Assembly (NCBI GenBank): GCA_044445195.1
Contig: JBIODP010000001.1
Location: forward strand, 1 to 39,816
Source of the DNA: Burkholderiales bacterium
GTDB lineage: Bacteria > Pseudomonadota > Gammaproteobacteria > Burkholderiales > Burkholderiaceae_D
Direction of reading: 5' to 3'
DNA: 39,816 bases
Shown: positions 8,067 through 36,535 of the stretch, piece by piece
Layout of the letters: every line of letters begins with the position of its first letter
Numbering within the stretch: the stretch's first letter is position 1
Made by a program: the position numbers and the translations under genes
The notes under the pieces: model-generated
The model's database searches: none
The model's input: the letters and a program-made list of their open reading frames with translations, nothing else
What the model was told of the DNA's origin: nothing

Positions 8067-8552
8067 ATGTCGATCGCTGTCTCGGTAGTGGTTAAACCAT
8101 CCAGGCTGCTATTCATTCTGGTCGCCGGGATATGTCTGGGAGCGGCCTTGGTCGGGGTGTCGGTCGGCTTGGGGGTCGTGGGTGAATTGCCGGTCTGGGA
8201 GCGGACGCTCTATGCCGGTTTTTGCATTTTTCTTGCATTAGCGGGATTGGTCCGCACTGCTCGCCGCAGAAAAACTTTTCATGTCGATATTTCCGGTACC
8301 GGACAAATCCGTCTGCGTGCCGAGGGTCAAAGTTTATCCTTTGCTCGGATGCAAGAACCGAATGACGACGGACTGTTGGTAAAATTGCTGGCCGACTCGA
8401 CGATATGGCCGCGTTTTCTATTGCTGCGCTTGCGCGCAGAGGATGGACGCATTCATATCGTGCCGATTTTGCACGATTGTTTGCCGGAAGAGCCCTTCAG
8501 GGCTATCTCAGTCGCTTGCCGGTGGATAGCCGCGCACAATTTTGTCCAATAA
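8067..8552 (+). CDS. Hypothetical inner-membrane protein with two N-terminal TM helices, YgfX/CptA-like (DUF1434-like) layout
   Basis: 161-aa ORF. Two hydrophobic segments are followed by RRRK, GQIRLR and LLLRLRAEDGR motifs that resemble my recollection of E. coli YgfX. The family assignment is tentative. Confidence 0.55.
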   Translation: MSIAVSVVVKPSRLLFILVAGICLGAALVGVSVGLGVVGELPVWERTLYAGFCIFLALAGLVRTARRRKTFHVDISGTGQIRLRAEGQSLSFARMQEPNDDGLLVKLLADSTIWPRFLLLRLRAEDGRIHIVPILHDCLPEEPFRAISVACRWIAAHNFVQ

Positions 8553-22559: not shown

Positions 22560-22635
22560 GCGGGAGTAGCTCAGTTGGTAGAGCGCAACCTTGCCAAGGT
22601 TGAGGTCGAGAGTTCGAGACTCTTCTCCCGCTCCA
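22560..22635 (+). tRNA. glyW: tRNA-Gly (anticodon GCC), copy 1, CCA encoded
   Basis: Hand-folded cloverleaf. Acceptor GCGGGAG/CTCCCGC, anticodon loop TTGCCAA, T-loop TTCGAGA. 76 nt. Confidence 0.93.
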
Positions 22636-22646
22636 GGATTCCAAGT

Positions 22647-22682
22647 GAAGCCAAGGATAACCTTATCCACGGCTTCTTTTTT
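22647..22682 (+). terminator. Terminator-like hairpin plus T6 between the two tRNA-Gly copies
   Basis: GAAGCC-AA-GGATAA/CC/TTATCC-AC-GGCTTC (6+6 bp with a 2x2 internal mismatch) followed by TTTTTT. Confidence 0.5.
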
Positions 22683-22711
22683 ATTTGGATGGGATGGCAA
22701 AACATTTACGT

Positions 22712-22787
22712 GCGGGAGTAGCTCAGTTGGTAGAGCGCAACCTTGCCAAGGTTGAGGTCGAGAGTTCGAGACTCTTCTCCCGCTCCA
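22712..22787 (+). tRNA. glyW: tRNA-Gly (anticodon GCC), copy 2, identical to copy 1
   Basis: 76/76 nt identical to 22560-22635. Confidence 0.93.
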
Positions 22788-22901
22788 GATGAAGAATATT
22801 TTTATATTGTCACCGAATCACCGGATAATTGTTAGAATCCAGCATCGGTAGTCTGAAGTTCAAGCAGCACACTTTCAGTTTCGTGGTACGATACTGCGCG
22901 C

Positions 22902-22975
22902 GGCGGGGTAGCAAAGTGGTTATGCAGCGGCCTGCAAAGCCGTCTACGCCGGTTCGATCCCGACCCCCGCCTCCA
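22902..22975 (+). tRNA. cysT: tRNA-Cys (anticodon GCA), CCA encoded
   Basis: 74 nt. Acceptor GGCGGGG/CCCCGCC, anticodon loop CTGCAAA. Colinear with E. coli tRNA-Cys. One C:A mismatch in the T-stem. Confidence 0.9.
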
Positions 22976-22986
22976 TTTGCAGCAAT
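22975..22986. repeat. Left copy of a 12-bp perfect inverted repeat (ATTTGCAGCAAT) flanking the GT4 gene
   Basis: Read directly. The first base is the terminal A of the tRNA-Cys CCA. The partner is at 24399-24410. Confidence 0.9.
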
Positions 22987-23046
22987 GTAGCATATGCACC
23001 CCTATCCCTATGCATATTCACTACACCTGCGCCTTGGGCATTTACC

Positions 23047-24243
23047 TTAGTTTGCAACAGATGGGCTGACAGCCTGCGCCCGTTGCGCGCTTCTGTTGTC
23101 AATCACCCCCTGATAGATGTCGACTACCCGCCGCGCAGTAGCGGGGGCGCTCCATGTATTTGCATATTCGCGCCCTTCATTGCCGATCAATTGACGCAAC
23201 TCCTTGTTGCCGAGCAATCGGGCAACTTTAGCGGCAAAGTCTTCCGTTTCCTCTTCCGCTACGAGAGCGCCGCGATGGGGGGACAGGATATCGATGGTTC
23301 CCATCACTGCGGTGGAGACAACAGGAACCCCCAGCGCCATTGCTTCAAGCAGCACCAGCCCCTGCGTTTCCGTGCGCGATGCGAAAACGAAGACGTCGGC
23401 AGCACAATAGCAGTCCATCAGTTCGGTTTCACGATCCAGATAACCGACGAACTTGACGTTGTCGGTAATCCCCAGGCGTTTGACCTGCTGTTCGAGATCG
23501 GGTTTTGCGGGGCCTTCGCCGCAGATCAATAGCAGCATTTTCGGGTGTGTCGCCTTCAGGTGAGCGACCACGGTCAACAGGAACCCAATATTTTTTTCGT
23601 GGGCTACGCGGCCTACATGCAGCAACAAAGGCTGATCTTCCGGGATGCCATGCTTCGCCCGAAAACGCGAACCGACACCCGATTTGAATTTTGCCATCTG
23701 GATGCCGGTAGGCGCAATATGAATAGGCGAGACGCAGCCGTATTGCTGCAAGACCATGCTCATGGCAGTGGAGGGCACAATGACCGCATCGACCGAATTG
23801 CACTGCGAGCGTGAAAAATTGCGCGTGATCATACGCGTCAAAAACTTGGGCAGCAGCGGCACATAGTGGTACAGGTACTCTTCAAAGAAGGTGTGATACG
23901 TCTCAACTGTGGGGATATTCAGCATTCTGGCCAGCTTGATGCCGGCGTAGTGCGCCAGAAAGGGGGTCTGTATATGCACGAGATCGAAATCCCGCTCGCG
24001 CAATTGCGGCAGCAACGCGTGGATTTTGGCCGACTTCATCAGACGATCCTCCGGGTCCATGATCACATTCCCCGATTCGACGCGTGTAATGTGCGGAACC
24101 TCCGGATGCCCCGCCGGATACGTCGGCGCTATGATATGCACGCCATGCCCTTGCTCGGACAGCTCCTGCTGGAAAGTCAGTATTGAGGTGGAAACACCAT
24201 TCACGCGAGGAAAATAGACATCCGATATCATCAGAATTCGCAT
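23047..24243 (-). CDS. GT4-family (group 1) glycosyltransferase, diacylglycerol-glycosyltransferase-like
   Basis: From ATG at 24243 (GGAG SD upstream): MRILMISDVYFPRVNGVSTSI. C-terminal E-x7-E region: FASRTETQGLVLLEAMALGVPVV. The ORF-track start at 24363 adds 40 unlikely residues. Confidence 0.85.
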   Translation of the reverse strand: MRILMISDVYFPRVNGVSTSILTFQQELSEQGHGVHIIAPTYPAGHPEVPHITRVESGNVIMDPEDRLMKSAKIHALLPQLRERDFDLVHIQTPFLAHYAGIKLARMLNIPTVETYHTFFEEYLYHYVPLLPKFLTRMITRNFSRSQCNSVDAVIVPSTAMSMVLQQYGCVSPIHIAPTGIQMAKFKSGVGSRFRAKHGIPEDQPLLLHVGRVAHEKNIGFLLTVVAHLKATHPKMLLLICGEGPAKPDLEQQVKRLGITDNVKFVGYLDRETELMDCYCAADVFVFASRTETQGLVLLEAMALGVPVVSTAVMGTIDILSPHRGALVAEEETEDFAAKVARLLGNKELRQLIGNEGREYANTWSAPATARRVVDIYQGVIDNRSAQRAQAVSPSVAN

Positions 24244-24398
24244 TCTTACCACTCCATAGATCAGTAATATCAGTATTGATCGCGTAGAGACTACTGAATG
24301 GATATTACAGCATCGTGACAATCGGTAATACGGGCATGATTTGCAAGAATTAACAGTGGGCAATTATTTGCCGGGGTTTTCAAGGCAGGATGGAGAGA

Positions 24399-24410
24399 AT
24401 TGCTGCAAAT
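24399..24410. repeat. Right copy of the 12-bp inverted repeat (ATTGCTGCAAAT)
   Basis: Exact reverse complement of 22975-22986. Confidence 0.9.
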
Positions 24411-24577
24411 TGCGCATTTTGGCATCGCTGAATAGGCAATGGACCGCGCGGAGTGATAAAATCGCGCCTCGCCATGCTTCATGGCCGTCGTTGGGGCCAC
24501 CGACATATGATGCGCTTATAATATAAACGCGCTTTATTACTGCAGTGTGACTGCAACGTGGCGCCAAATCGCATATT

Positions 24578-24670
24578 GCCCGAGTGGTGAAATTGGTAGA
24601 CACAGCGGACTTAAAATCCGCCGCTTACCTGAAAAGGGGCGTGCCGGTTCAATTCCGGCCTCGGGCACCA
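24578..24670 (+). tRNA. leuZ: tRNA-Leu (anticodon UAA), unusually long (93 nt) because of a ~21-nt variable arm, CCA encoded
   Basis: Acceptor GCCCGAG/CTCGGGC, anticodon loop CTTAAAA, T-arm GCCGG-TTCAATT-CCGGC. Colinear with E. coli leuZ except for a longer variable region CGCTTACCTGAAAAGGGGCGT. Confidence 0.85.
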
Positions 24671-24863: not shown

Positions 24864-27653
24864 ATGCGTGGGAGTATGGCGTACAAAATCGTTATACCAA
24901 GCCTGTATTGGTTAACTGGCATCTTGTCTTTTGCCACGGGTCACCATTTACTTGCTGCGTTTAATCAACCTCGCGACCGAGCGCAGTTATTATTCAGTGG
25001 CATTACTTTTTTGTCGGTGCTTCAAGCAATTTCTTTTATTTATACCTTGCAGGCAGTCAACATCGTTGAGTATGTCGATGCGCTCAGATGGAATATTGCG
25101 GCTACCCTCCTGTTAATGCTTTTGCTCCCTTGGTTTATCGCCCTGCTTACGGGAATAATCCCGCGCTCTTTTCTGCTGTGGTTCAGCGTGTTGCAAGTTG
25201 TATTTTTCGCGGTAAATTTGGCACAGCCGTACACTTTACAATTCGATCATTTAGATGGACTTCATACCCTCAACTTGCCATGGGGCGAACAGGTCACCCG
25301 CGGGCATGGGCACCCAGGTTTCGTGACATATGCAGTCATTTCTGTAGTGGCGTTGAATTTTGGCTTCACTTTATATGCCCTGGCAAGCGCATATCGTCGT
25401 GACCGCAAGCTGATGGACTTATGGATGCTGATCGCTTTCTGGCTGTATCTGCTCTGTGGAATTGAAGGCGTTCTTGCACGACTGTCTATCGTGGAATTCA
25501 TTGAAACCGGTCCGGTCGGCATCTTGGCAATGGTAGCGGTCATGAGCGCTGCACTAACCTTTGAAATGCAAAAGCGGGTACGTACCTCCGAGCGGCAATT
25601 CCGTTCCCTATTTGAAAATTCACCTACCGGATTAGTCGCCATTGATCCGGAAAGCCGGTGCATTGTGCAAGCCAACCGCATTGCACTGGAAATGAGCGGG
25701 TTTAATTCCGAAGAGATTCTCACCAAGACTGTTGCCGAGTTAACATACCCTGATGATTTGAATCAGTCGGAATACCGGCAATGCTACGAACAACTTTCAA
25801 GTGGGGTCATTGATCGCTTGTCTTATGAAAAACGGTTCCTCAGAAAAGATGGGAGTAGTTTTTTCGGACTAACGTCAATCTCAACTCTCAAGGATGAGCG
25901 CGGCAAGATTATGCGCTTCATTGGCAGCACCATTGATATTTCCGAACGCAAGGAGATGGAAGATGCTTTGCATGAAAGCGAGTTTCGATTTCGCACCATC
26001 ATTGAACAATCGCCTATCGGCATTGCATTTTCACGAGATGGAATTATGCTCGATGCAAATGAAGCCCTGTTGCAAATGTTTGGCCACAAAGATGTTGCAG
26101 AGGTGCGTGGACAACCCATAGTCAACCGGATTGCCCCACAGTGCCGGGCGGAAATTGAAGAGCGGATCAGAAAACGTTCTTTGGGTCAGCCAGTTGAAGG
26201 AACTTTTGAAACAATCGGTTTGCGTACGGACGGCTCACAGTTCCCATTACTTGTTTCGGTTAAACGCATCGTACTGAGTGATGGACCATTGACCTGTGCT
26301 TTTGAAATCGACATGACCGATAGTAAGGCGGCAGAAGAAAAGATCAAACATTTGGCTTTCTATGACCACCTCACCGATCTTCCTAACCGACTGCTTTTGC
26401 TCGATCGCCTCCAACAAGCAATGGCTTCCAGCGCGCGCAGCGGGAAACAGGGCGCACTGTTGTTCGTTAACCTGGACGACTTCAAATCGCTTAATGATAC
26501 CTTGGGTCATGCTGCGGGAGACTTGCTGCTGAAGCAGGTAGCGCGACGATTGACTTCGAGTTTGCGCGAAGGCGATTCAGTAGCACGGTTCGGTAGTGAT
26601 GAATTCGTCGTATTACTGCAAGACTTGAGTGGGCAGCTTATTGAGGCGGCGGAGCAAACAGAAATTGAATGTAATAAGATTTTTGATTCGCTCAAGCTAC
26701 CGTACCAACTTGGAGCACATGAATACCAGTGCACCATCAGTATTGGCGCAACCCTGTTCAAAGATCATCAGCAGACAAAAGAAGATCTGATAAAACAGGC
26801 TGACATCGCCATGACTCATGCCAAGAAGTCCGGGCGTAGCAAGCTGCGTTTCTTTGATCCTAAAATGCAGGCAGCTATTGACGCTCGTACAGCACTTGAA
26901 GGTGAACTACGTCATGCGCTTAAAAAAGAACAATTCCAGCTTCACTACCAAATCCAAATCGACAATTTTGGCCGTCCAATCGGAGCGGAGGCGCTTATCC
27001 GCTGGATACACCCTGAGCGCGGTTTGATTTCTCCCGCTCAATTCATTCCATTGGCAGAAGAAACGGATTTGATTCTGCCGATGGGGCAATGGGTGATCGA
27101 GGCAGCTTGCGCCCAGCTTAAGGCATGGGAGCGCGATGAAATGACACGAGACCTCGTTTTGGCGGTAAACATCAGCGCCAAGCAATTTTTCCAGGCTAAT
27201 TTCGTTTCTCACATTATGGCAACGGTGCATTGCCATAATATAAATTCCAATCTTCTCAAGCTTGAATTGACCGAAAGTATTTTGGTCGATGACATTGAAG
27301 GCACCATTTTAATTATGAGCGCATTGAAAAAAATCGGCGTCAGCTTCTCGCTTGATGACTTCGGAACAGGGTATTCATCCTTGCAATATCTTAAGCGGTT
27401 ACCGCTCGACCAGCTTAAGATTGACCAATCATTTGTACGCGACCTTGGCACCGATAGCAACGATGAAGCACTGGTGCGCACCATAATTTCAATGGCGCAA
27501 AGTTTGAATCTGGAGGTCATCGCAGAAGGCGTCGAAACCGAAAGCCAGCGGGAATTTTTGCTGAAAAACGGTTGCACCCGGTACCAGGGGTTTCTGTTTA
27601 GCAGACCATTACCGGTTGAACAATTCGATGCATTACTGAGCAAGGCTGCATAA
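24864..27653 (+). CDS. Membrane-bound c-di-GMP signalling protein: ~7 TM N-terminal domain, two PAS domains, GGDEF (GSDEF variant, RxxD I-site) and EAL
   Basis: Seven hydrophobic segments in aa 1-235. PAS blocks (FENSPTGL..., IIEQSPIGIAF...). REGDSVARFGSDEF at 26565-26606. EAL at 26988-26996, plus ELTES, DDFGTGYSS and KIDQSF. An alternative start is ATG at 24876. Confidence 0.9.
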   Translation: MRGSMAYKIVIPSLYWLTGILSFATGHHLLAAFNQPRDRAQLLFSGITFLSVLQAISFIYTLQAVNIVEYVDALRWNIAATLLLMLLLPWFIALLTGIIPRSFLLWFSVLQVVFFAVNLAQPYTLQFDHLDGLHTLNLPWGEQVTRGHGHPGFVTYAVISVVALNFGFTLYALASAYRRDRKLMDLWMLIAFWLYLLCGIEGVLARLSIVEFIETGPVGILAMVAVMSAALTFEMQKRVRTSERQFRSLFENSPTGLVAIDPESRCIVQANRIALEMSGFNSEEILTKTVAELTYPDDLNQSEYRQCYEQLSSGVIDRLSYEKRFLRKDGSSFFGLTSISTLKDERGKIMRFIGSTIDISERKEMEDALHESEFRFRTIIEQSPIGIAFSRDGIMLDANEALLQMFGHKDVAEVRGQPIVNRIAPQCRAEIEERIRKRSLGQPVEGTFETIGLRTDGSQFPLLVSVKRIVLSDGPLTCAFEIDMTDSKAAEEKIKHLAFYDHLTDLPNRLLLLDRLQQAMASSARSGKQGALLFVNLDDFKSLNDTLGHAAGDLLLKQVARRLTSSLREGDSVARFGSDEFVVLLQDLSGQLIEAAEQTEIECNKIFDSLKLPYQLGAHEYQCTISIGATLFKDHQQTKEDLIKQADIAMTHAKKSGRSKLRFFDPKMQAAIDARTALEGELRHALKKEQFQLHYQIQIDNFGRPIGAEALIRWIHPERGLISPAQFIPLAEETDLILPMGQWVIEAACAQLKAWERDEMTRDLVLAVNISAKQFFQANFVSHIMATVHCHNINSNLLKLELTESILVDDIEGTILIMSALKKIGVSFSLDDFGTGYSSLQYLKRLPLDQLKIDQSFVRDLGTDSNDEALVRTIISMAQSLNLEVIAEGVETESQREFLLKNGCTRYQGFLFSRPLPVEQFDALLSKAA

Positions 27654-28823: not shown

Positions 28824-28902
28824 CCAACACGCATTAGCAAGCAGATAGATAAAACATTCCGTCACATTTATGCATGGCGTCACCTTACATTCACAGGAAA
28901 TC

Positions 28903-29796
28903 ATGATGAAAAAAATTAACTTTATGCCGGCTGCACTGGTGCTGGCAGTTCTCCTTGCTGCTTGCGGCACCACGCCGAAAACCACCAGTTTGCTGGACCA
29001 TGCGCGCAGCGATTTCTACACGGCGCAAAACAACCCTGATGTCATAACTTACGCGCAAGTGCAATTGAAAGAGGCGGGCGATGCTCTTGACCTGGCCAAT
29101 GCCGCGGAAAAACATGATGAGAGCGCCGCGAAGATCGATAAGCTGGCTTACCTTGCCAAGCAAAAGATCGCATTGACGCAAGAAACGGCAAAGCAAAAAT
29201 CAGCAGAGGCGCAAGTCGCCAATGCAGCGAAGCAGCGCGACCAAATTCGTTTGAGTCAACGCACGCATGAAGCCGACCAAGCAATCATTAGCGCCGAACA
29301 GTCTAACCTTGCGGCGCAGATAGCTGTGGGCGAGACTGTCGAGGCACAGCGCAAGACACAGGAAGCGCAAGCGCACTCGGCACAGCTGGAGGCGCAATTG
29401 GCTGATTTGTCCGCACAAAAAACTGACCGCGGTATGGTGATCACACTTGGCGACGTGCTGTTCGGCACCGACTTGGCACGCCTGAATCCGGATGGCATGC
29501 GCACCGCGCAAAAATTGGCCGACGTTTTACAGCAAAATCCGCAACGCAACGTGCTGATTGAAGGCTTTACCGACAGCACCGGGTCTGCACCGCATAACCA
29601 GGAGTTGTCCGAGCGCCGCGCTGCCGCAGTACGTAGCGCGTTGCAGGAAATGGGGATAGCTTCGGAACGCGTTGCGATACGGGGCTACGGTCAGACGTTC
29701 CCTGTTGCCGCCAATGATAATGCGCAGAGCCGCCAATTGAACCGGCGCGTCGAGATCGTCCTCTCTGACGCTAGCGGCAAGGTAACACCGCGCTAA
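28903..29796 (+). CDS. OmpA-family peptidoglycan-binding lipoprotein with a DUF4398-like N-domain and coiled coil
   Basis: Lipobox LLAAC. C-terminal OmpA_C block (LFGTDLARLNP...IEGFTDSTGSAPHNQELSERRAAAV...NRRVEIVL). Start chosen at ATG 28903, after AGGAAA. Confidence 0.85.
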   Translation: MMKKINFMPAALVLAVLLAACGTTPKTTSLLDHARSDFYTAQNNPDVITYAQVQLKEAGDALDLANAAEKHDESAAKIDKLAYLAKQKIALTQETAKQKSAEAQVANAAKQRDQIRLSQRTHEADQAIISAEQSNLAAQIAVGETVEAQRKTQEAQAHSAQLEAQLADLSAQKTDRGMVITLGDVLFGTDLARLNPDGMRTAQKLADVLQQNPQRNVLIEGFTDSTGSAPHNQELSERRAAAVRSALQEMGIASERVAIRGYGQTFPVAANDNAQSRQLNRRVEIVLSDASGKVTPR

Positions 29797-29802
29797 TTCG
29801 TC

Positions 29803-29872
29803 CAACATTCGAGGCCAATCGGATTGCGGAACGATTGGCTATCGAAATCGCGCGCCAAATGATCGAATGTTG
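29803..29872 (+). other. Nested inverted repeats: outer 10-bp CAACATTCGA/TCGAATGTTG enclosing inner 8-bp GCCAATCG/CGATTGGC
   Basis: Read directly in the 106-nt gap between the OmpA-like gene and the DUF1003-like gene. No U-tract follows. Confidence 0.6.
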
Positions 29873-29902
29873 TGGTGACTCCAGCTCGACTACGGAACGG
29901 CA

Positions 29903-30505
29903 ATGAACGCAAAAAACTTCCCTTCGCCGACACCGCCTTTGAATGCCCAGCAAGGATCGCCTGATTCCGATCTTGATCCGATTGGTAAAAACACGGAAAC
30001 CATTTTGGCGTTCAACTTGCGCGAAGAAGGAACGGTAACGCATTTTCAGCGAATTCTTGAATCCATTAGCAGTTCTCTTGGGCGTCCGCTTTTCCTTAGC
30101 TCCATAATGGCATTCGTAGTAACATGGATGCTGGTCAACATCTTGATGGGAAAAATGGGTTTCACGGCCATAGACCTGCCGCCATTTCCCTGGTTGCAAG
30201 GCATGGTTGGGTTGGGCGCATTATTGACGACGATAGTAGTTTTGATTAAACAAAACCGTTTGGCGAAAATGGAGGAACGGCGAGCCCATCTGGAACTTCA
30301 GGTAAATCTGTTGACCGAACAGAAAGTCACTAAACTGATTAACCTGATGGAAGAGTTGCGGCGGGATTTACCGATGATTAAAAATCGACATGATGCCGAA
30401 GTGATCGCCTATCAACTGCCGACCAATCCGGAATCTGTCCTGGCCGCACTGGACGAACGACTCGAAACGGAAGCGCATCGGGGACAGCCAGAAGGCATTG
30501 ACTAG
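29903..30505 (+). CDS. DUF1003-like membrane protein
   Basis: Two TM segments, then the LIKQNRLAKMEERRAHLELQVNLLTEQKVTKL block typical of DUF1003 as I recall it. Confidence 0.6.
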   Translation: MNAKNFPSPTPPLNAQQGSPDSDLDPIGKNTETILAFNLREEGTVTHFQRILESISSSLGRPLFLSSIMAFVVTWMLVNILMGKMGFTAIDLPPFPWLQGMVGLGALLTTIVVLIKQNRLAKMEERRAHLELQVNLLTEQKVTKLINLMEELRRDLPMIKNRHDAEVIAYQLPTNPESVLAALDERLETEAHRGQPEGID

Positions 30506-30524
30506 AGATGTTATTTATAACACT

Positions 30525-30677
30525 TCACCGCAGGAAGTGACCGGCGCCAAACAATCCGACCAAGCCGATCACGATCAAATAAATGGCTACGATCAAATTC
30601 AACAGACGCGGAATGACAAGAATCAGGATGCCGGCGATGAGCGATACGATGGGGACCAGGCTGACGGTAATGTTCAT
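30525..30677 (-). CDS. DUF3096-family small membrane protein (50 aa)
   Basis: My translation: MNITVSLVPIVSLIAGILILVIPRLLNLIVAIYLIVIGLVGLFGAGHFLR. Absent from the ORF track (<60 aa). It is antisense to the spurious + ORF at 30498-30695. Confidence 0.7.
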   Translation of the reverse strand: MNITVSLVPIVSLIAGILILVIPRLLNLIVAIYLIVIGLVGLFGAGHFLR

Positions 30678-30777
30678 GATATGTTGTTCCGATAAACTCC
30701 GGTTCTTACACCGAATTGGTTAGGAACGGGCCGTCCGGAGGGCGGCCTTGTTGCCTACGGGCGATCACAGAGATGAT

Positions 30778-31002
30778 TCAACCTGGTTTTTTTTCAGAAT
30801 CTGCATCGAAGAGCCTCTGCCTGGTGTCTTTCATCTCTTTGACGGTTTGTTTCAGGTCGCCCACGGTTTCCTGCAGGTTCCCTTTGATCTGGAGCTTGAG
30901 TCCCTCGGCCTGCTGATGGCTGTTACCGATCAGTTCGCCAACTTTTTCTTGCACTTTGCCGCCGATGTCTTTTGCTGCGCCTGTTACTTGATCTTTGTTC
31001 AT
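30778..31002 (-). CDS. CsbD-family general stress protein
   Basis: From ATG at 31002 (GAGG SD): MNKDQVTGAAKDIGGKVQEKVGELIGNSHQQAEGLKLQIKGNLQE. The track start at 31140 is too far upstream. Confidence 0.8.
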   Translation of the reverse strand: MNKDQVTGAAKDIGGKVQEKVGELIGNSHQQAEGLKLQIKGNLQETVGDLKQTVKEMKDTRQRLFDADSEKKPG

Positions 31003-31199
31003 GATATGCCTCGTTTGATGTTGAATGGGAAATGTGATTTTGCAAACCAAGCTGCGGTTTGCGTCTTCGACAACACGATCGATTCGTGTGCTTGGTGTAA
31101 AGATAGCGCGAATGCGTTGCCGGCTCCGTGCGGTAGCCAACTTAAAATTTCGATCGCTACGCGGGGCGTCGCTCAGGCAGAGGGGAGTAGGTCGGTTGA

Positions 31200-31309: not shown

Positions 31310-31678
31310 TTACGCGCCGACTAATTTTTTAAAGGTCGCCAGGACGGCATCGCCCTTGAATGGCTTGACTATCCAGCCCTTGACGCCGGCAGCCTTGCCG
31401 CGCTCTTTCATGAGCGGTGAGTTGACCGTGGTCAGCATGATGATGTTGACAGTGCTGTTGCCGAGTTCGTTGCGAATTTTTTCGGCCATGGTCAGGCCAT
31501 CCATGATCGGCATGTTGACGTCGCTCAGCACGAGCTTGATATTGCTATCCGCCTGGAGTTTCGCCAGTCCATCGCGCCCATCGATGGCGCATGTTACGGC
31601 AAGACCATTTTTCGTCAGAAAATCGCCCACTTCGTTGCGAACGGTGCTGGAGTCGTCGACCACCAGTATTTGTGCCAT
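31310..31678 (-). CDS. cheY: Single-domain CheY-like response regulator
   Basis: D8-D9, D53 in LSDVNMPIMDG, T83/T84 and K105 in VKPF. All receiver active-site residues are present. Confidence 0.9.
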   Translation of the reverse strand: MAQILVVDDSSTVRNEVGDFLTKNGLAVTCAIDGRDGLAKLQADSNIKLVLSDVNMPIMDGLTMAEKIRNELGNSTVNIIMLTTVNSPLMKERGKAAGVKGWIVKPFKGDAVLATFKKLVGA

Positions 31679-31697
31679 GATAACCTCGTGAAAAAAA

Positions 31698-32672
31698 TTA
31701 AAATAATTCCAATTCGCCGGACTCGAACCAAGCTTCGACCGAAACCTGGTTTACTTTGAAGTCGTCCGGAGACCAATTCAGATTGAAAACAAACCGTTGA
31801 TAAATGGTCAGCGGCAGCACATCCTTGTCGTTTTTTGCGTTCAGCGTATATTTGAAACACAACTGCGGATCTTCGGAACCGAATGAAATATATCGATGCA
31901 AATGATTGACAATAATCGGGACCTGCGACAGTTGCGCAATGTTATCAGAATGCGAGATATAGCGGTTTTTGAAGGTGCCCCAAATAAGATTCGTGATTTC
32001 CCCCAAAATATTGTTCAGGTGCCGAAAATCGTTGTTATTGTCGGACGCAGTGTGTGTTCTTTCGGCACGGACCAGATGCAGCAACGGCTCCTCCTCGACT
32101 TGCAGCATCATGTAACCCCGGCACCAACTGCTTTCGAGTGGGATCATGGTAAAGATCTCCCCGAAAATAAGCCTGTCCCGGACCAGATACGGCGCCTCGA
32201 CATCGATACCCATATCATTGAACTGGCTTTCCAGCGCCGTTATCGTCAGCTCCACGATTCCGCGAATCAGGGCGTTAGGGTAGACCTGGCTAAATATGCT
32301 GGCGTCTATGGCGCTGCGCAAACTGGCGATGTCTGCAATCGTGTAGGAGGCGCTGAATAATTTTCTATCTTTCCCGGAAAGATTATCCGGATAAGGGATT
32401 TCTTCCCGACGCAAAAAAATCGGCAATTCCGGACGAATGCGATGAATCTCGCGCGCTAACGCGATGCCCCCATTGTCGTTGCCGCCATAGCTTTCCGAAA
32501 GCAATATTCCACCCAGATCTATGTTGGATTTCAATACCGGTAATACGTTTTCCTCATGAACCTTAAGGCCCACCAAATTGTGGGTGTCGCAAAATAGCTT
32601 GATCTGGTCATAACATTCGGTATTGCTGTCCAAAACAAGCACCTTGCTGACCAGTGTTGCTCGATCGTTCAT
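31698..32672 (-). CDS. Pseudo-receiver domain fused to a CheX-like phosphatase domain
   Basis: The N-terminal ~125 aa follow a receiver-like beta/alpha pattern (VLVLDS...GGILLSES...PIFLRR) but lack the phospho-acceptor Asp. The C-terminal half carries GEITN-x23-P, resembling the CheC/CheX ExxN-x22-P motif. The protein ends in SGELELF. Confidence 0.7.
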   Translation of the reverse strand: MNDRATLVSKVLVLDSNTECYDQIKLFCDTHNLVGLKVHEENVLPVLKSNIDLGGILLSESYGGNDNGGIALAREIHRIRPELPIFLRREEIPYPDNLSGKDRKLFSASYTIADIASLRSAIDASIFSQVYPNALIRGIVELTITALESQFNDMGIDVEAPYLVRDRLIFGEIFTMIPLESSWCRGYMMLQVEEEPLLHLVRAERTHTASDNNNDFRHLNNILGEITNLIWGTFKNRYISHSDNIAQLSQVPIIVNHLHRYISFGSEDPQLCFKYTLNAKNDKDVLPLTIYQRFVFNLNWSPDDFKVNQVSVEAWFESGELELF

Positions 32673-32688
32673 ACACTATTCCTTCTTT

Positions 32689-33243
32689 CTAAAAAAATTC
32701 CAGTTCCCCGGTAGCTGCTTCCTCATCGTCTGCCTTTACAGAGAAATCCAGGTCGGCATGATCGCAAACGCATAGGCTGACAGGAAACGAAAAGCTATTG
32801 TTGAGATTGACCGTGAAATGCCGAATATGACCGCAGCCCAGCACATTCAGGTAAGACGCGCAATTTTTGTCGATGATGTTGGGCGTCGACATGTCGATGT
32901 GGGAAAAGAACTGGCCTAAATCGCGGTTGAATATGCCACAGCAAATATTTCCGTATTCGCCGACGGCGTCATAAAACGATTGTTCGTTCATATCTTGCAT
33001 CCGCATGCCGTTGAGCCTGGCGTAGTGCTCTTTCGTCGCATCGTCCGGCGTAAAATAAATCAGGATCATCAACCGGAACAGATGCGATGAAATGGTCAAG
33101 ATGGCGATCCTGGTTTCTTTTATGGCGGACATTTCATTGAAGGCAGAAATGTCGCAGGTATCCTCCGCAGATTTTTGCAGGCTTGCTTTGAGGGCCTGTG
33201 CCAGTAAATAGTCGAAGCCGTCGCGCGCGCTTTTGCTGATCAT
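32689..33243 (-). CDS. CheX-like CheY-P phosphatase
   Basis: AVGEYGNICCGIFNRDLGQFFSHIDMSTP aligns with Thermotoga CheX AIGELGNMTAGKLAMKLEHLGKHVDITPP (from memory). Ends in TGELEFF. Confidence 0.7.
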   Translation of the reverse strand: MISKSARDGFDYLLAQALKASLQKSAEDTCDISAFNEMSAIKETRIAILTISSHLFRLMILIYFTPDDATKEHYARLNGMRMQDMNEQSFYDAVGEYGNICCGIFNRDLGQFFSHIDMSTPNIIDKNCASYLNVLGCGHIRHFTVNLNNSFSFPVSLCVCDHADLDFSVKADDEEAATGELEFF

Positions 33244-33255
33244 GGTTGTCGCCGG

Positions 33256-33975
33256 TTATGCAGCAAGCGCATCTTTGGTTTTTTGATTGGTCAACCCCAG
33301 TCCGACGATGGCGCTGGTGATCATCTTGCCCCCGGCCTGCAGGTCCTGGAAGGTGGTTGTCGAGATCAGGTCGTTTTGAAAGAGATTGCTGCGATAATCG
33401 TTCGACAATTTTTCTGCGCGATTGGCCAAGGTTCTCACCTCGTTCGCCACTACCGCGAAACCGTGCCCATGCACGCCGGCCCTGGCGGCTTCGATCGAGG
33501 CGTTGAGGGCCACAATCACCACTTGCTTGACGATCAATGCAAACTCATCGTTTTTAGCCTGTATTTCCCGATTGTGCGTGATCAACATATTCATGTTGGC
33601 ATGCCAGCGCTCAAAAGTCTTGGTCAAGTCAAGCAACCGATCGATTGTTTCCGTCGAAAAATCACAATGCCGGATGATCGCTGTTTTAATAGCCGTATTG
33701 CTTTCCGTGACTTGGCCGATCAAATTCTCGTGATCTTTCTTCAGCCGATGGCTGCGGGCATCGGACGCGGTTTTTTCCTGCTCAAGCAATTGTTGGCATT
33801 GCTCTATTTGAGTTTGCATTTCCTGCAATGTCAGTTGCCAATTCCGTTCGGCTGTCTGTGCCTTTTCAAGTGGGATCATGGCGGAGATGGTTTGCTTGAG
33901 TGTGCGGATTTTCCACCACATGACGCCGCAGCAGCCGAAGAGCGTCAGCAATAAAATCGAGATTGCAATGACCAT
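33256..33975 (-). CDS. Mini methyl-accepting-chemotaxis-like protein: one N-terminal TM helix plus a truncated MCP signalling domain
   Basis: ALNASIEAARAGVHGHGFAVVANEVRTLANRAEK matches the invariant MCP hairpin tip (LALNAAIEAARAGEqGRGFAVVAdEVRkLA). Only 239 aa. Confidence 0.8.
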   Translation of the reverse strand: MVIAISILLLTLFGCCGVMWWKIRTLKQTISAMIPLEKAQTAERNWQLTLQEMQTQIEQCQQLLEQEKTASDARSHRLKKDHENLIGQVTESNTAIKTAIIRHCDFSTETIDRLLDLTKTFERWHANMNMLITHNREIQAKNDEFALIVKQVVIVALNASIEAARAGVHGHGFAVVANEVRTLANRAEKLSNDYRSNLFQNDLISTTTFQDLQAGGKMITSAIVGLGLTNQKTKDALAA

Positions 33976-34007
33976 GTGCAGGCTACTTTATAAGATGATT
34001 GTAATTT

Positions 34008-36464
34008 TTACGCTGTGTGAAAATTGGCATCGCCAAGGCCTGAGCCTTCTCCGGGGTTGCGGTCGGCTCCGGGCCCGGTATGTTGCCCGGAGGTGGCAGC
34101 AGCGGCGGCAGGCACATCGCCGCCGTCAATGTATGCGGCCATGCTTTCAGGTAGAAAAACAAGGATTTCAAATTGTCGGAACTCGGCGCCGATCGCCTCA
34201 TCGGTGAAGCGGATTTCCACTTTTCCCTGTTCGCGAGCAACGAAATCCTGCACAGCATCCATGCCGACGCCGCGCCCGGATACGGCAGTAACTTTATCGG
34301 CGGTTGAAAAACCGGGTCGGAACACGAGGCGGGCGATATCTTCATCGCTCATTTTGTCTGCGGTGGCGTCAAGCCCTTTTTCGATGGCTTTCTTGCGAAT
34401 GCGGCGCAGAGCCAGGCCGGCGCCGTCATCGCGCAGGGCGATTTGAAAAAAACCGTCAGCGGTACCCGCCCGGATGTGGATCGTGCCGACCGCCGGCTTG
34501 CCTGTTGCGATTCGTCTTTGCGCAGTCTCAATGCCGTGGACCACGGCATTGCGGATCAGGTGCATAAATACGTTCTTCAGCATGCCGCTGGCCTGATTAT
34601 GCACCACGTAGCCGCGGTCTTCGATGGTGACGAGCGGCGTAGCCTTGCCAAGTTCCTCGGCAAGTGCCGGCAGTGAAGCGAGCACACTGCCCAGAGTGTC
34701 GGCGATGCGTTCGGTTCCCAGCAGGCGCAGCGTCCTGCGCACAGCATCGCGCGCGGAAATCAATTCGTGCAGATTGGCGGTATTGACTGTCTCCAGACGA
34801 TGCAGGCTATCCTGTATATGCTGCTTGTCAACCAGCAGATAACGTTCCACACTGCCGCGGCGACCGGGCCCTCTGCGGCCCAATGTGACTTCATTGATCC
34901 TGACGTAACGCTCGAGTAATGCCTCGACCCCTGCCAACTCGTCCATCAATGCAGCCTGATCCCAGACAACGGTGGTGTCCGGCATGCGCAATTGCTCGTA
35001 ACTTTGTTCAGCCTGATGGACGATATTGGACAGATGCAGCAGCCCGTACGTGCGGCTATTGCCTTTGATCGTATGCATATTGCGGAACAGTTTCGCGATG
35101 GCGAATTCATGCCGCTCGGCGTGCTGTCCGATCAGCAGCGCATTTTCCTCGATGAACCTGACGGAGCCGGCGATGAATTCGTGGAACTTTTCCTGGTCGA
35201 CCGCCAGTATTTCACCGATAATCTCCAACTCGCGTTTCTGGTCGTTGGCCTCAGCTGCCAGCTTGCGTAATTCTGTGACGTCGCGCACGCATAACATCAA
35301 ACGCACGATCTTGCCGGCATCGTCGGTAATAGGCGACCAGTTCAAATCCAAAATTTTCATGCTACGGTCCGGCATGGTCTTTTCTATCTCACCGACCATC
35401 AAGTGCTCATTGAACTGAAAATTCATGAAGTCTTCGCCAATGCAAGCGCTGGCTGCGGCATCCACTTGCGACAGGGTGTCGGCGCCCAGATTCGTCTTGG
35501 AAAATACCAAGTCCACCAGGTCGCGCCCGGCAATATCCCCAGTCTCGAAAACCGTTTCGAGATAAGCGGAGTATTCCGGGTGAATTCTGTTGCCTTCCGC
35601 TACCGTCAAGATACCTTGAGGAATGTTTTGCAGCATGGTCTGCATGTCGGTAGTCTTTTGTTTGAGTTGAGCCGAACTCTCTTCAATTTTTTCAATCATG
35701 CCGTTGAAGGCAACAATTGAGCGTCCGATTTCATCGTTCCGGCCGACGGGAACCCGGCGGGTGAAATCCTGGCTGGAAGCGATTTCAGTCATCATCATTT
35801 GCATTCTGCTGATGGGGCCGATGATTGCGCGATAGAGAAGCATCCCGATCGCGGTCAGGAAAATGACAGCGATGACGGTGACGACCGAGATCGTCGTCGC
35901 AGTGGTCGCCATATTCCGGTTCAATGCTTCTATGGCGTTATCCTTGCTTCGGTTTTTTTCCACTCTCAGCGTCGTTACGATGACTTCAAGTTCCGCCTGG
36001 TATTGAACCACATTCCCAAAAAATGAAGCCTGAGCAAGCTCAGCCTTGCCTGCCAGTTTGTTTTTTACGGTTTCGTCGATTGCGGTCAAATAATTGGCGA
36101 GACTTTCCTTCGCCTGCTGTACCAAACCGCGTTGCGCATCGCTGTCAGCGCCCTGGGATTGCAGATCGATGGTTTTTCGTAAAAGGGTTTTCTTTGCGCT
36201 CAGGTTTTCCATCGCTTCGGTCGCCATGTTACCGGCAGGCGCGTATACCACGGTCATTACCGCCAGTTGCACATCCTTGAGTTGCGATACAAGGTCAGCC
36301 GAGGCGAGCGCGCTGGGCACCACGCCTTCCGTTACGGTTTTTACATCGGACGCGCTTCTGCGGGACTGGAAAACGGCGTAACCGCCAATAGAGGAGAGAA
36401 TGAGGAAGGTCAGGATGACCAAGAGTGTGATGCGATGACGAATGCTCATGTCCCGACCTTCCAT
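34008..36464 (-). CDS. Transmembrane CheA-like histidine kinase: periplasmic helical sensor, HAMP, PAS-like, Hpt (P1) and CheA-type ATPase (P4), with no CheW-like P5 domain
   Basis: - TM segments at aa ~12-32 and ~188-212.
- HAMP: GPISRM...GRNDEIGRSIVAFNGM.
- Hpt: FRNMHTIKGNSRTYG, with the His464 codon at 35073-35075.
- CheA-type boxes: HLIRNAVVHGIE, DDGAGL, FRPGFSTA, SGRGVGMD.
- Only ~45 low-complexity aa follow the ATPase.
- The start may be ATG at 36449, which has a GGAAGG SD sequence. Confidence 0.85.
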   Translation of the reverse strand: MEGRDMSIRHRITLLVILTFLILSSIGGYAVFQSRRSASDVKTVTEGVVPSALASADLVSQLKDVQLAVMTVVYAPAGNMATEAMENLSAKKTLLRKTIDLQSQGADSDAQRGLVQQAKESLANYLTAIDETVKNKLAGKAELAQASFFGNVVQYQAELEVIVTTLRVEKNRSKDNAIEALNRNMATTATTISVVTVIAVIFLTAIGMLLYRAIIGPISRMQMMMTEIASSQDFTRRVPVGRNDEIGRSIVAFNGMIEKIEESSAQLKQKTTDMQTMLQNIPQGILTVAEGNRIHPEYSAYLETVFETGDIAGRDLVDLVFSKTNLGADTLSQVDAAASACIGEDFMNFQFNEHLMVGEIEKTMPDRSMKILDLNWSPITDDAGKIVRLMLCVRDVTELRKLAAEANDQKRELEIIGEILAVDQEKFHEFIAGSVRFIEENALLIGQHAERHEFAIAKLFRNMHTIKGNSRTYGLLHLSNIVHQAEQSYEQLRMPDTTVVWDQAALMDELAGVEALLERYVRINEVTLGRRGPGRRGSVERYLLVDKQHIQDSLHRLETVNTANLHELISARDAVRRTLRLLGTERIADTLGSVLASLPALAEELGKATPLVTIEDRGYVVHNQASGMLKNVFMHLIRNAVVHGIETAQRRIATGKPAVGTIHIRAGTADGFFQIALRDDGAGLALRRIRKKAIEKGLDATADKMSDEDIARLVFRPGFSTADKVTAVSGRGVGMDAVQDFVAREQGKVEIRFTDEAIGAEFRQFEILVFLPESMAAYIDGGDVPAAAAATSGQHTGPGADRNPGEGSGLGDANFHTA

Positions 36465-36465
36465 C

Positions 36466-36490
36466 GATTATGTTGCTTTGAAGCATAATC
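36466..36490. promoter_or_regulatory. 7-11-7 palindrome (GATTATG-N11-CATAATC) abutting the kinase start codon
   Basis: Read directly. Lies in the 71-nt kdpE-kinase gap. Confidence 0.4.
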
Positions 36491-36535
36491 TTTTGGAATG
36501 ACAAGATGATGACAATGCGACGAAGTCGCGTCAAG

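Follow-up and report, generated by a model that had tools for sequence, protein, structure and literature searches.

The window analysed here, the whole of a 39,816-nt stretch of DNA from a Burkholderiales bacterium (GenBank assembly GCA_044445195.1, contig JBIODP010000001.1, positions 1 to 39,816 of the forward strand), carries a compact operon of chemosensory-lineage genes. Five minus-strand open reading frames (ORFs) within positions 31310-36464 encode, in gene order, a membrane-bound sensor kinase, a short methyl-accepting chemotaxis protein (MCP) referred to below as the mini-MCP, two proteins with CheX domains (CheX184 and CheX324) and a single-domain response regulator (CheY). The intergenic gaps measure 32, 12, 16 and 19 nt in that order, and the ORF coordinates thereby agree with a preliminary description of this DNA, made from the sequence alone, which had given five minus-strand genes 12-32 nt apart.

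34008-36464, minus strand: sensor kinase gene, 818 aa from the first ATG
33256-33975, minus strand: mini-MCP gene, 239 aa
32689-33243, minus strand: CheX184 gene, 184 aa
31698-32672, minus strand: CheX324 gene, 324 aa
31310-31678, minus strand: CheY gene, 122 aa

The sensor kinase and its partner proteins

The probable start of the kinase is the second ATG, at 36449, which would give 813 aa; gene callers elsewhere use this start, and a GGAAGG sequence resembling a ribosome-binding site lies upstream. In the 818-aa numbering, Pfam finds 4HB_MCP_1 at residues 5-160 (6.9e-7), HAMP at 209-262 (3.8e-9), Hpt at 447-507 (1.3e-6) and HATPase_c at 629-763, together with a weak PAS match at 273-400 (PAS_4, 0.008). 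Hydropathy places two transmembrane (TM) helices at about 10-34 and 184-219. The parts of the protein lie along the gene as follows.

35793-36449, minus strand: sensor input, consisting of TM1, a ~155-aa 4HB periplasmic domain and TM2 (residues ~6-224; Pfam, hydropathy, model)
35280-35840, minus strand: HAMP (about 209-278) and cytoplasmic PAS (about 283-395; Pfam, model)
34884-35195, minus strand: Hpt (P1-like) four-helix bundle (Pfam, alignment with CheA P1)
34722-34826, minus strand: short helical hairpin at the P3 position, with two helices of ~13 and ~17 residues (model)
34131-34649, minus strand: CheA-type (P4-like) ATPase with N, G1, F and G2 boxes (matches to CheA P4 in the PDB, 1e-29 to 1e-44)
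34011-34124, minus strand: C-terminal tail of 38 residues, disordered (model confidence, pLDDT, ~30)

In the AlphaFold model of the kinase (813 numbering, mean pLDDT 75), long sensor and TM helices (3-69, 74-99, 104-132 and 136-226) and a HAMP precede a PAS-type beta-sheet at 278-390 (pLDDT 80-88). This is followed by the Hpt bundle at 419-522, a disordered Gly/Arg-rich linker, the hairpin at 542-576 (helices 542-554 and 560-576), the ATPase at 606-773 and the tail.

The catalytic core is that of CheA. A family profile compared with the PDB aligned kinase residues 423-517 with CheA P1 and 586-758 with CheA P4, with E-values down to 1e-44; the best Foldseek domain matches were CheA P4 and P3P4 structures, and the best NCBIfam matches were CheA equivalogs, at scores far under the cutoff. 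The P4-type ATPase is ~30% identical to CheA P4 of T. maritima and E. coli, and the Hpt domain aligns with residues 10-107 of E. coli CheA P1. Its phospho-acceptor position, His464 (codon 35073-35075), stands in the context LFRNMHTIKGN. The His-Thr-x-Lys-Gly-Asn motif is invariant in 40 homologues, as are the boxes N (HLxRN), G1 (DDGxG), F (GFST) and G2 (GRGVG). The domains that flank P4 in CheA are another matter. H-kinase_dim and HisKA had no Pfam match in the kinase, and the hairpin aligned to T. maritima P3 in the family profile with low posterior probability only; from the model, P3 would be at most vestigial, or absent. A P5/CheW-like domain was not found in the kinase by Pfam, by NCBIfam or in the model, which ends in disorder right after the ATPase, and since only the disordered tail follows P4 there is no room for P5. 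The kinase is thus a CheA-derived P1-P4 core, with at most a vestigial P3 in between, a full transmembrane sensor in front, and neither P2 nor P5.

Three short features of the partner proteins recur in the argument below.

33415-33510, minus strand: hairpin tip of the mini-MCP (residues 156-187), near-canonical, with the tip motif at least 90% conserved
32692-32709, minus strand: C-terminal tag GELEFF-COOH of CheX184; 20 of 22 orthologues end in GEL[ED][FLIMV]F
31701-31718, minus strand: C-terminal tag GELELF-COOH of CheX324; 118 of 120 family members carry the motif

The product of the second gene had been taken for a 239-aa single-TM protein bearing only the MCP hairpin tip, and both hydropathy and a partial Pfam match agree: MCPsignal covers residues 127-194, which correspond to profile positions 24-91 of 172 only (4.1e-16). 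An N-terminal hydrophobic anchor (1-23), present in 101 of 120 family members, is followed by basic residues, a variable coiled-coil stalk and a conserved core at ~115-225. This core comprises the tip and both arms up to what aligns with the glycine hinge of Tsr. The protein has no ligand-binding or periplasmic domain and no full-length methylation-helix bundle; its return helix ends ~70 residues past the tip, and the operon encodes no CheR or CheB that could methylate it. Flanking the tip are two invariant motifs particular to the mini-MCP family, TFERWH (119-124) and NDLxTTxTFQDxQAxGKM (201-218).

CheX184 matches Pfam CheX (3.6e-6) and CheC. It carries the motif D92-x3-E96-x2-N99, in which E96 and N99 are at least 90% conserved, and its GEYGN falls on GELGN in an alignment to T. 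maritima CheX (1xko). CheX324 matches Pfam CheX at 174-275 (1.2e-8) and has three invariant residues, E60, E225 and N228, the latter two forming a catalytic-type motif, E225-x2-N228. Calling both proteins CheX-like, as had been done from the sequence, is correct in that each contains a CheX domain; CheX324 is nevertheless not a plain CheX, as a receiver-like domain stands in front. In its AlphaFold model (pLDDT 80), a (beta-alpha)5 receiver-like domain at about 9-125 precedes a CheC/CheX fold at about 133-300, and Foldseek returns CheC/CheX structures (3iic, 3h2d, 6vpw, 1xko) along with receiver domains, none of the matches being CheW. The N-terminal half is regarded as a pseudo-receiver because the invariant Glu60 (in ILLSE, at the end of beta3) replaces the phospho-acceptor Asp. 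Both proteins share the fold and the Glu/Asn pair of T. maritima CheX (1XKO) and CheC (1XKR) and are, judging from their intact E-x2-N motifs, predicted phosphatases of the CheC/CheX family. They differ from known CheX proteins in that two paralogues occur in one operon, one of them fused to a pseudo-receiver, and in that both end in GELE(F/L)F. This ending, as GEL[ED][FLIMV]F-COOH, was not found in any other ORF of the fetched loci, and it is not known from described CheX proteins. It is probably a docking tag. The C-terminal peptide of E. coli CheZ and the NWETF of MCPs are terminal acidic/hydrophobic docking peptides ending in Phe, which tether an enzyme to its substrate or scaffold; the likeness to GELE(F/L)F is one of analogy only, as the sequence is different.

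CheY (Response_reg, 1e-21; Asp53 at codon 31520-31522) is the most conserved protein of the operon, with 73-89% identity across loci vs. 54-81% for the kinase and a nearly invariant profile. It carries Trp at the beta5 aromatic position (GWIVKPF). Its best match among solved structures is V. cholerae CheY4 (PDB 4H60/4HNR), at 87 bits vs. 52-57 bits for motor CheYs, although CheY4 belongs to a complete cluster with CheA3, CheW, CheB, CheR and CheD, the operon CheY does not, and the match is moderate. CheY4 also has Trp at beta5 and showed no binding to FliM in pull-downs (PMC3774744). The resemblance speaks weakly against the flagellar switch as the output of the operon.

Pfam agrees with the domain calls of the preliminary description across all five proteins (4HB_MCP_1, HAMP, PAS, Hpt, HATPase_c, MCPsignal, CheX and Response_reg), and its His464, Asp53 and N/G1/F/G2 boxes stand, the codons being located and the boxes invariant. 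It had also listed CheW, CheR, CheB, CheD and CheZ as missing from the operon. Pfam and NCBIfam models of these five had no match at E<=1 in any of the operon proteins, which bears this out. CheX324 was the only one with an unassigned region large enough for a CheW fold. A CheW-like fold hidden there or in the kinase C-terminus was looked for by structure prediction and ruled out, as the kinase ends in a disordered tail; because CheX324 consists of a REC-like domain and CheX, none is hidden among the partners either.

Conservation and origin of the cluster

The comparison drew on 26 loci of named genomes, on related loci amounting to 482 kb and on four annotated neighbourhoods of +-7-10 kb. 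Genes for the kinase, mini-MCP, CheX184 and CheY are syntenic in 21 of the 26 loci. Genera with the cluster include Herbaspirillum, Oxalicibacterium, Janthinobacterium, Paraburkholderia, Trinickia, Formivibrio, Paludibacterium, Gallionella and Sulfuricella, as well as an Azoarcus-like organism; it is also found in Oxalobacteraceae, Burkholderia and Ralstonia, and is common in Betaproteobacteria. In Burkholderia cenocepacia, B. multivorans, Ralstonia and Caballeronia, orthologues are carried on secondary replicons. Database matches number well over a thousand each for the kinase, the mini-MCP and CheX324. For the kinase there are >1,800 at E<=1e-10, of which the best 120 are all about 800-885 aa long, have the same domains and bear only generic names ('CheA', 'HAMP domain-containing', 'Hpt domain-containing'). 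Both the catalytic residues and the synteny are strongly conserved, which rules out a pseudogene or decaying che operon. The operon is real and conserved, far beyond what chance would produce, and it looks functional.

The accessory genes vary in a regular way. There are two gene orders among the clusters, and the mini-MCP/CheX184 and CheX324/CheY pairs are adjacent in both. The mini-MCP gene always adjoins that of CheX184, and the two overlap by 4 nt in seven loci and in Burkholderia sp. YI23, an arrangement that makes their translational coupling probable. CheX324 is optional: it is present in 12 of the 21 clusters and missing from 7 of those whose downstream sequence is complete. One locus (L014:5822-5950) has, between CheX184 and CheY, a stop codon followed by 43 codons left over from the C-terminus of CheX324 (…SPDDIKKSRASVEARFASGELTLF*), and for this reason the four-gene clusters probably arose by deletion of CheX324. 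On the same contig, from a metagenome-assembled genome (MAG), the kinase also falls into two tblastn segments. A second single-domain receiver gene follows CheX184 or a GGDEF gene at two loci (L016:5017-5385 and L032:9349-9717) and could serve as a second output or phosphate sink. The genes that flank the cluster differ in every genome. Within +-7-10 kb of it, the four annotated genomes have no cheW, cheR, cheB, cheD or cheZ, and a tblastn search of the 482 kb with E. coli CheW gave nothing better than E=0.89.

Three loci (L013, L017 and L023) carry an orthologous kinase without the partner genes, followed by PAS-GGDEF or EAL-CBS-GGDEF genes. The suggestion that the kinase senses directly is supported by such loci, because in them orthologous kinases occur without any mini-MCP. 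Further P5-less kinases of the family occur without CheY, CheX or mini-MCP at L029-L031. Such lone kinases may mean that several feed one shared CheY encoded elsewhere, in a multi-kinase network.

Beyond these orthologues, the Hpt-hairpin-P4 core was searched alone against 1.84 billion representatives, and at least 1,246 clusters at 50% identity were obtained at E<=1e-30. Among the best 150 core matches, 135 cover the whole core; in these full-length representatives the region N-terminal to the core has a median of 539 residues, and the stretch after P4 has a median length of 7 residues and never exceeds 45, such that none of the 135 has room for P5. Ten sampled members had NIT-HAMP, 7TMR-DISM, GAF, HAMP-GAF or Ser/Thr-kinase-AAA-GAF inputs, none had a CheW domain, and two were orphans. 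A distant member with HAMP as the sole Pfam match in its sensor region is followed by a series of MCP, ~185-aa and ~322-aa genes, and a HAMP-GAF member (L032) faces an operon of mini-MCP, a 189-aa protein, CheX, REC, CheX, PAS-GGDEF and REC. The accessory module accompanies kinases with several different sensor regions. The preliminary description had pictured a receptor that was divided when a CheA core entered between its HAMP domain and its signalling tip. This origin is not supported: the core is joined to many unrelated sensors, kinases occur alone, and the mini-MCP has an anchor and stalk of its own. Sensor diversity and orphan kinases rule it out, and by comparison of the sequences the origin is domain accretion onto a kinase core.

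Class assignment and a proposed signalling scheme

In the usual view, control of chemotaxis-type kinases is exerted solely by receptor arrays that depend on CheW and on the P5 domain of CheA. The canonical CheA core consists of Hpt, dimerization, HATPase_c and CheW domains (PMC10782961), and Berry, Andrianova & Zhulin (2023; PMC10782961) take HATPase_c together with CheW as the definition of CheA, with CheW/P5 in 100% of CheAs and no sensor domain. By that definition the kinase is not a CheA, because it lacks a CheW domain and carries a sensor. It resembles canonical CheA in its separate Hpt phospho-acceptor domain, its P4-type ATPase and the CheY and CheX downstream. Unlike the kinases of canonical arrays, it has a transmembrane sensor and at most a vestigial P3, lacks P5 and P2, and is accompanied by no CheW, CheR or CheB. 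The F, ACF and Tfp chemosensory classes require CheA, CheW and MCP together, usually with CheR and CheB encoded alongside; no CheW was found with the kinase in the window or in related loci, and the operon falls outside them.

A class with such a composition has reportedly been described. Class III histidine kinases (HKIII), said to have been defined computationally by Adebali, Petukh, Reznik, Tishkov, Upadhyay and Zhulin (2017, J Bacteriol 199:e00218-17), reportedly place sensory domains on a CheA-derived kinase domain, with Hpt, no CheW domain and no dimerization domain. They are said to work with CheX and a single-domain response regulator and, in many cases, with a soluble chemoreceptor of unorthodox type. 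They were reportedly found mainly in Betaproteobacteria, and many HKIII genomes are said to lack chemotaxis genes while all have pilT, from which a role in type IV pilus motility was reportedly proposed. Features of this type found here are the CheA-derived catalytic domain, sensors in the same polypeptide, Hpt with its His, the lack of P5, a single-domain regulator, CheX and a short chemoreceptor. One difference concerns the chemoreceptor, reportedly soluble in HKIII whereas the mini-MCP is membrane-anchored; 'soluble' does not hold for the mini-MCP lineage, because most of its members have the N-terminal anchor. The operon is a further member of an already described class and not a new kind of system. 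The preliminary description knew of no characterised pathway with this parts list. Such novelty is not supported, though the refuting observation it had named, a described class of known function, holds only by half: the class has reportedly been described, its function only proposed.

We consider it probable that the operon is an HKIII-type, CheW-independent signalling module, an offshoot of the chemosensory lineage in which the kinase passes phosphate to CheY and the CheX proteins reset the signal; the individual steps set out here are held with less confidence. Ligands or cytoplasmic signals would act through the 4HB, HAMP and PAS domains on the kinase itself, with no receptor array, and the kinase would dimerize through its 4HB and HAMP coiled coils rather than through P3. 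By analogy with the known chemistry of CheA P1/P4, CheY and CheX, the ATPase would phosphorylate His464 and the phosphoryl group would pass to Asp53 of CheY. CheX184 and CheX324 would then hydrolyse CheY-P, giving a fast reset, with no methylation-based adaptation. Both phosphatases may dock by GELE(F/L)F, and the most economical target, by analogy with the CheZ peptide, would be CheY, because it is the one partner common to the two; the Hpt domain may be the docking site for the pseudo-receiver of CheX324. The mini-MCP would be an accessory scaffold or regulator rather than a sensor, positioning or gating CheX184 beside the kinase. It most likely works in a membrane-tethered complex with CheX184, since the two genes are always adjacent and in seven loci overlap. 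As output, CheY-P would bind a non-flagellar target, for which the type IV pilus machinery (the reported proposal) and c-di-GMP enzymes (suggested by the gene neighbourhood) are candidates.

Several points count against this scheme. Literature searches found no experimental paper on a TM-CheA/mini-MCP/CheX system, nor, among the papers searched, any use of 'HKIII' for histidine kinases. For the tag, the pseudo-receiver and the mini-MCP, the proposed roles derive only from conservation and the order of the genes. GGDEF/EAL genes lie within ~8 kb of the kinase in 9 of the 26 loci, directly adjacent in several; these neighbours are only a hint of a link to c-di-GMP signalling. Lastly, the near-canonical tip of the mini-MCP would also fit a CheW or CheA-P5 encoded elsewhere, beyond the 40-kb window.

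The last point leads to the main rival, in which the tip would join an ordinary chemoreceptor array via CheW and CheA-P5 encoded elsewhere, and the operon would be an accessory input or a means of phosphatase delivery (of CheX184, and perhaps of a CheY pool) for flagellar chemotaxis. The tip is almost identical to that of canonical receptors, with nearly all Tsr trimer and CheW contacts kept when compared by eye, and most of the host genera are flagellated chemotactic bacteria. However, the invariant TFERWH and NDLxTTxTFQDxQAxGKM point to a dedicated partner, the operon CheY resembles a CheY4 that does not bind FliM, and cheW and cheA are never linked to the cluster (four annotated genomes; 482 kb searched by tblastn for CheW). 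A further point against an array is the absence of chemotaxis genes from many genomes with HKIII kinases, reported as noted above and repeated second-hand in PMC6501615, a source that seems to conflate the term with an older 'type III' classification. On balance we regard participation in an array as unlikely.

It is also conceivable, if distinctly doubtful, that the tip regulates the P5-less kinase directly by packing on its Hpt domain, hairpin or P4, as a leftover of a split receptor. Most loci encode the kinase and the mini-MCP together, in the gene order of the window the two are neighbours, and the hairpin region of the kinase holds invariant residues. Nevertheless, the alternative gene order parts the mini-MCP from the kinase and keeps it with CheX184, and orthologous kinases do without it altogether. 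The anchor and stalk of the mini-MCP, like the many unrelated sensors on the kinase core, speak against this leftover.

Returning to the CheW-independent module, a stronger version can be put forward only tentatively, as something possible though not probable: that the MCP tip acts independently of CheW and P5 by gating CheX or the kinase, and that GELE(F/L)F is a docking code by which an array-free device with c-di-GMP or pilus output would assemble. Wsp-type systems, which control c-di-GMP, have the full MCP-CheW-CheA-CheR-CheB set and a REC-GGDEF output. The operon is like them in its chemosensory-lineage proteins, its proposed non-motility output and the GGDEF/EAL genes beside or inside the cluster; unlike them, its regulator is a bare receiver, and the c-di-GMP link is only positional. 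What makes the operon of interest is that this kinase family has dropped CheW and P5, yet the hairpin tip, the most conserved piece of the receptor, has been retained. The binding partner of the stub receptor would tell whether the MCP tip has a second, array-independent function. The family is large and reaches opportunistic pathogens such as B. cenocepacia and B. multivorans, and with so few parts the operon would offer a model of CheA-type kinase control that can be reconstituted. Beyond the class itself, what remains of interest is the MCP tip without CheW/P5, along with the tag, the fusion of a pseudo-receiver to CheX, the overlapping genes, the membrane anchor and the neighbouring c-di-GMP genes.

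Gene neighbourhood and the rest of the window

Directly upstream of the cluster, on the same strand, lie kdpE and kdpD (36536-39810). The kdpD N-terminus is probably cut off, because the ORF extends to 6 nt or less from the end of the window and matches the Pfam KdpD profile only from position 39 onward.

36465-36535, minus strand: gap of 71 nt between kdpE and the kinase gene, with one sigma-70-like match at 36534-36506

A promoter of the operon's own in this gap is possible; the sigma-70-like sequence is a consensus match only, and matches in the region are no more numerous than in shuffles. The preliminary description had raised K+ or osmotic phenotypes, but that the operon serves K+/osmotic signalling as a phosphate sink or an additional sensory branch, as its position 71 nt downstream of kdpE on the same strand might suggest, is highly improbable and is rejected because the adjacency is not conserved: no other locus has kdpDE beside the cluster, the flanks differ everywhere, and both a sensor and a response regulator already belong to the kinase.

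On the other side, a PAS-PAS-GGDEF-EAL protein is encoded at 24864-27653 on the plus strand, 3.6 kb from the cluster. GGDEF/EAL neighbours were seen at L002, L009, L011, L013, L017, L019, L022, L023, L026 and L032, with the GGDEF gene inside the accessory-module operon at L032, and an HDOD protein follows the cluster at L027. Between the GGDEF-EAL gene and the cluster (28870-31140) are genes for an OmpA-family lipoprotein with DUF4398, a DUF1003 membrane protein and a CsbD-like small stress protein; no functional link of these genes to the cluster is evident, and there are no pilus genes in the window.

The first 22 kb (1-22 kb) form a housekeeping block with maf, plsX-fabHDG-fabF, rpoE-rseAB-degP, lepA-lepB-rnc-era-recO-pdxJ, uvrC and pgsA. 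After pgsA, positions 22560-24670 hold tRNA genes for Gly-GCC, Gly-GCC and Cys-GCA, a minus-strand GT4 glycosyltransferase gene (23047-24363) and tRNA-Leu-TAA, and over 24-28 kb the G+C content falls from ~0.54-0.57 to ~0.47-0.48. The tRNA cluster and the drop in G+C possibly mark where the conserved housekeeping block gives way to a variable region, to which the cluster would belong. Within the block, between fabF and the rpoE-rseA-rseB-degP operon, a 161-aa ORF (8067-8552, plus strand) matches Cpta_toxin (5e-9), the membrane-bound toxin of a toxin-antitoxin system.

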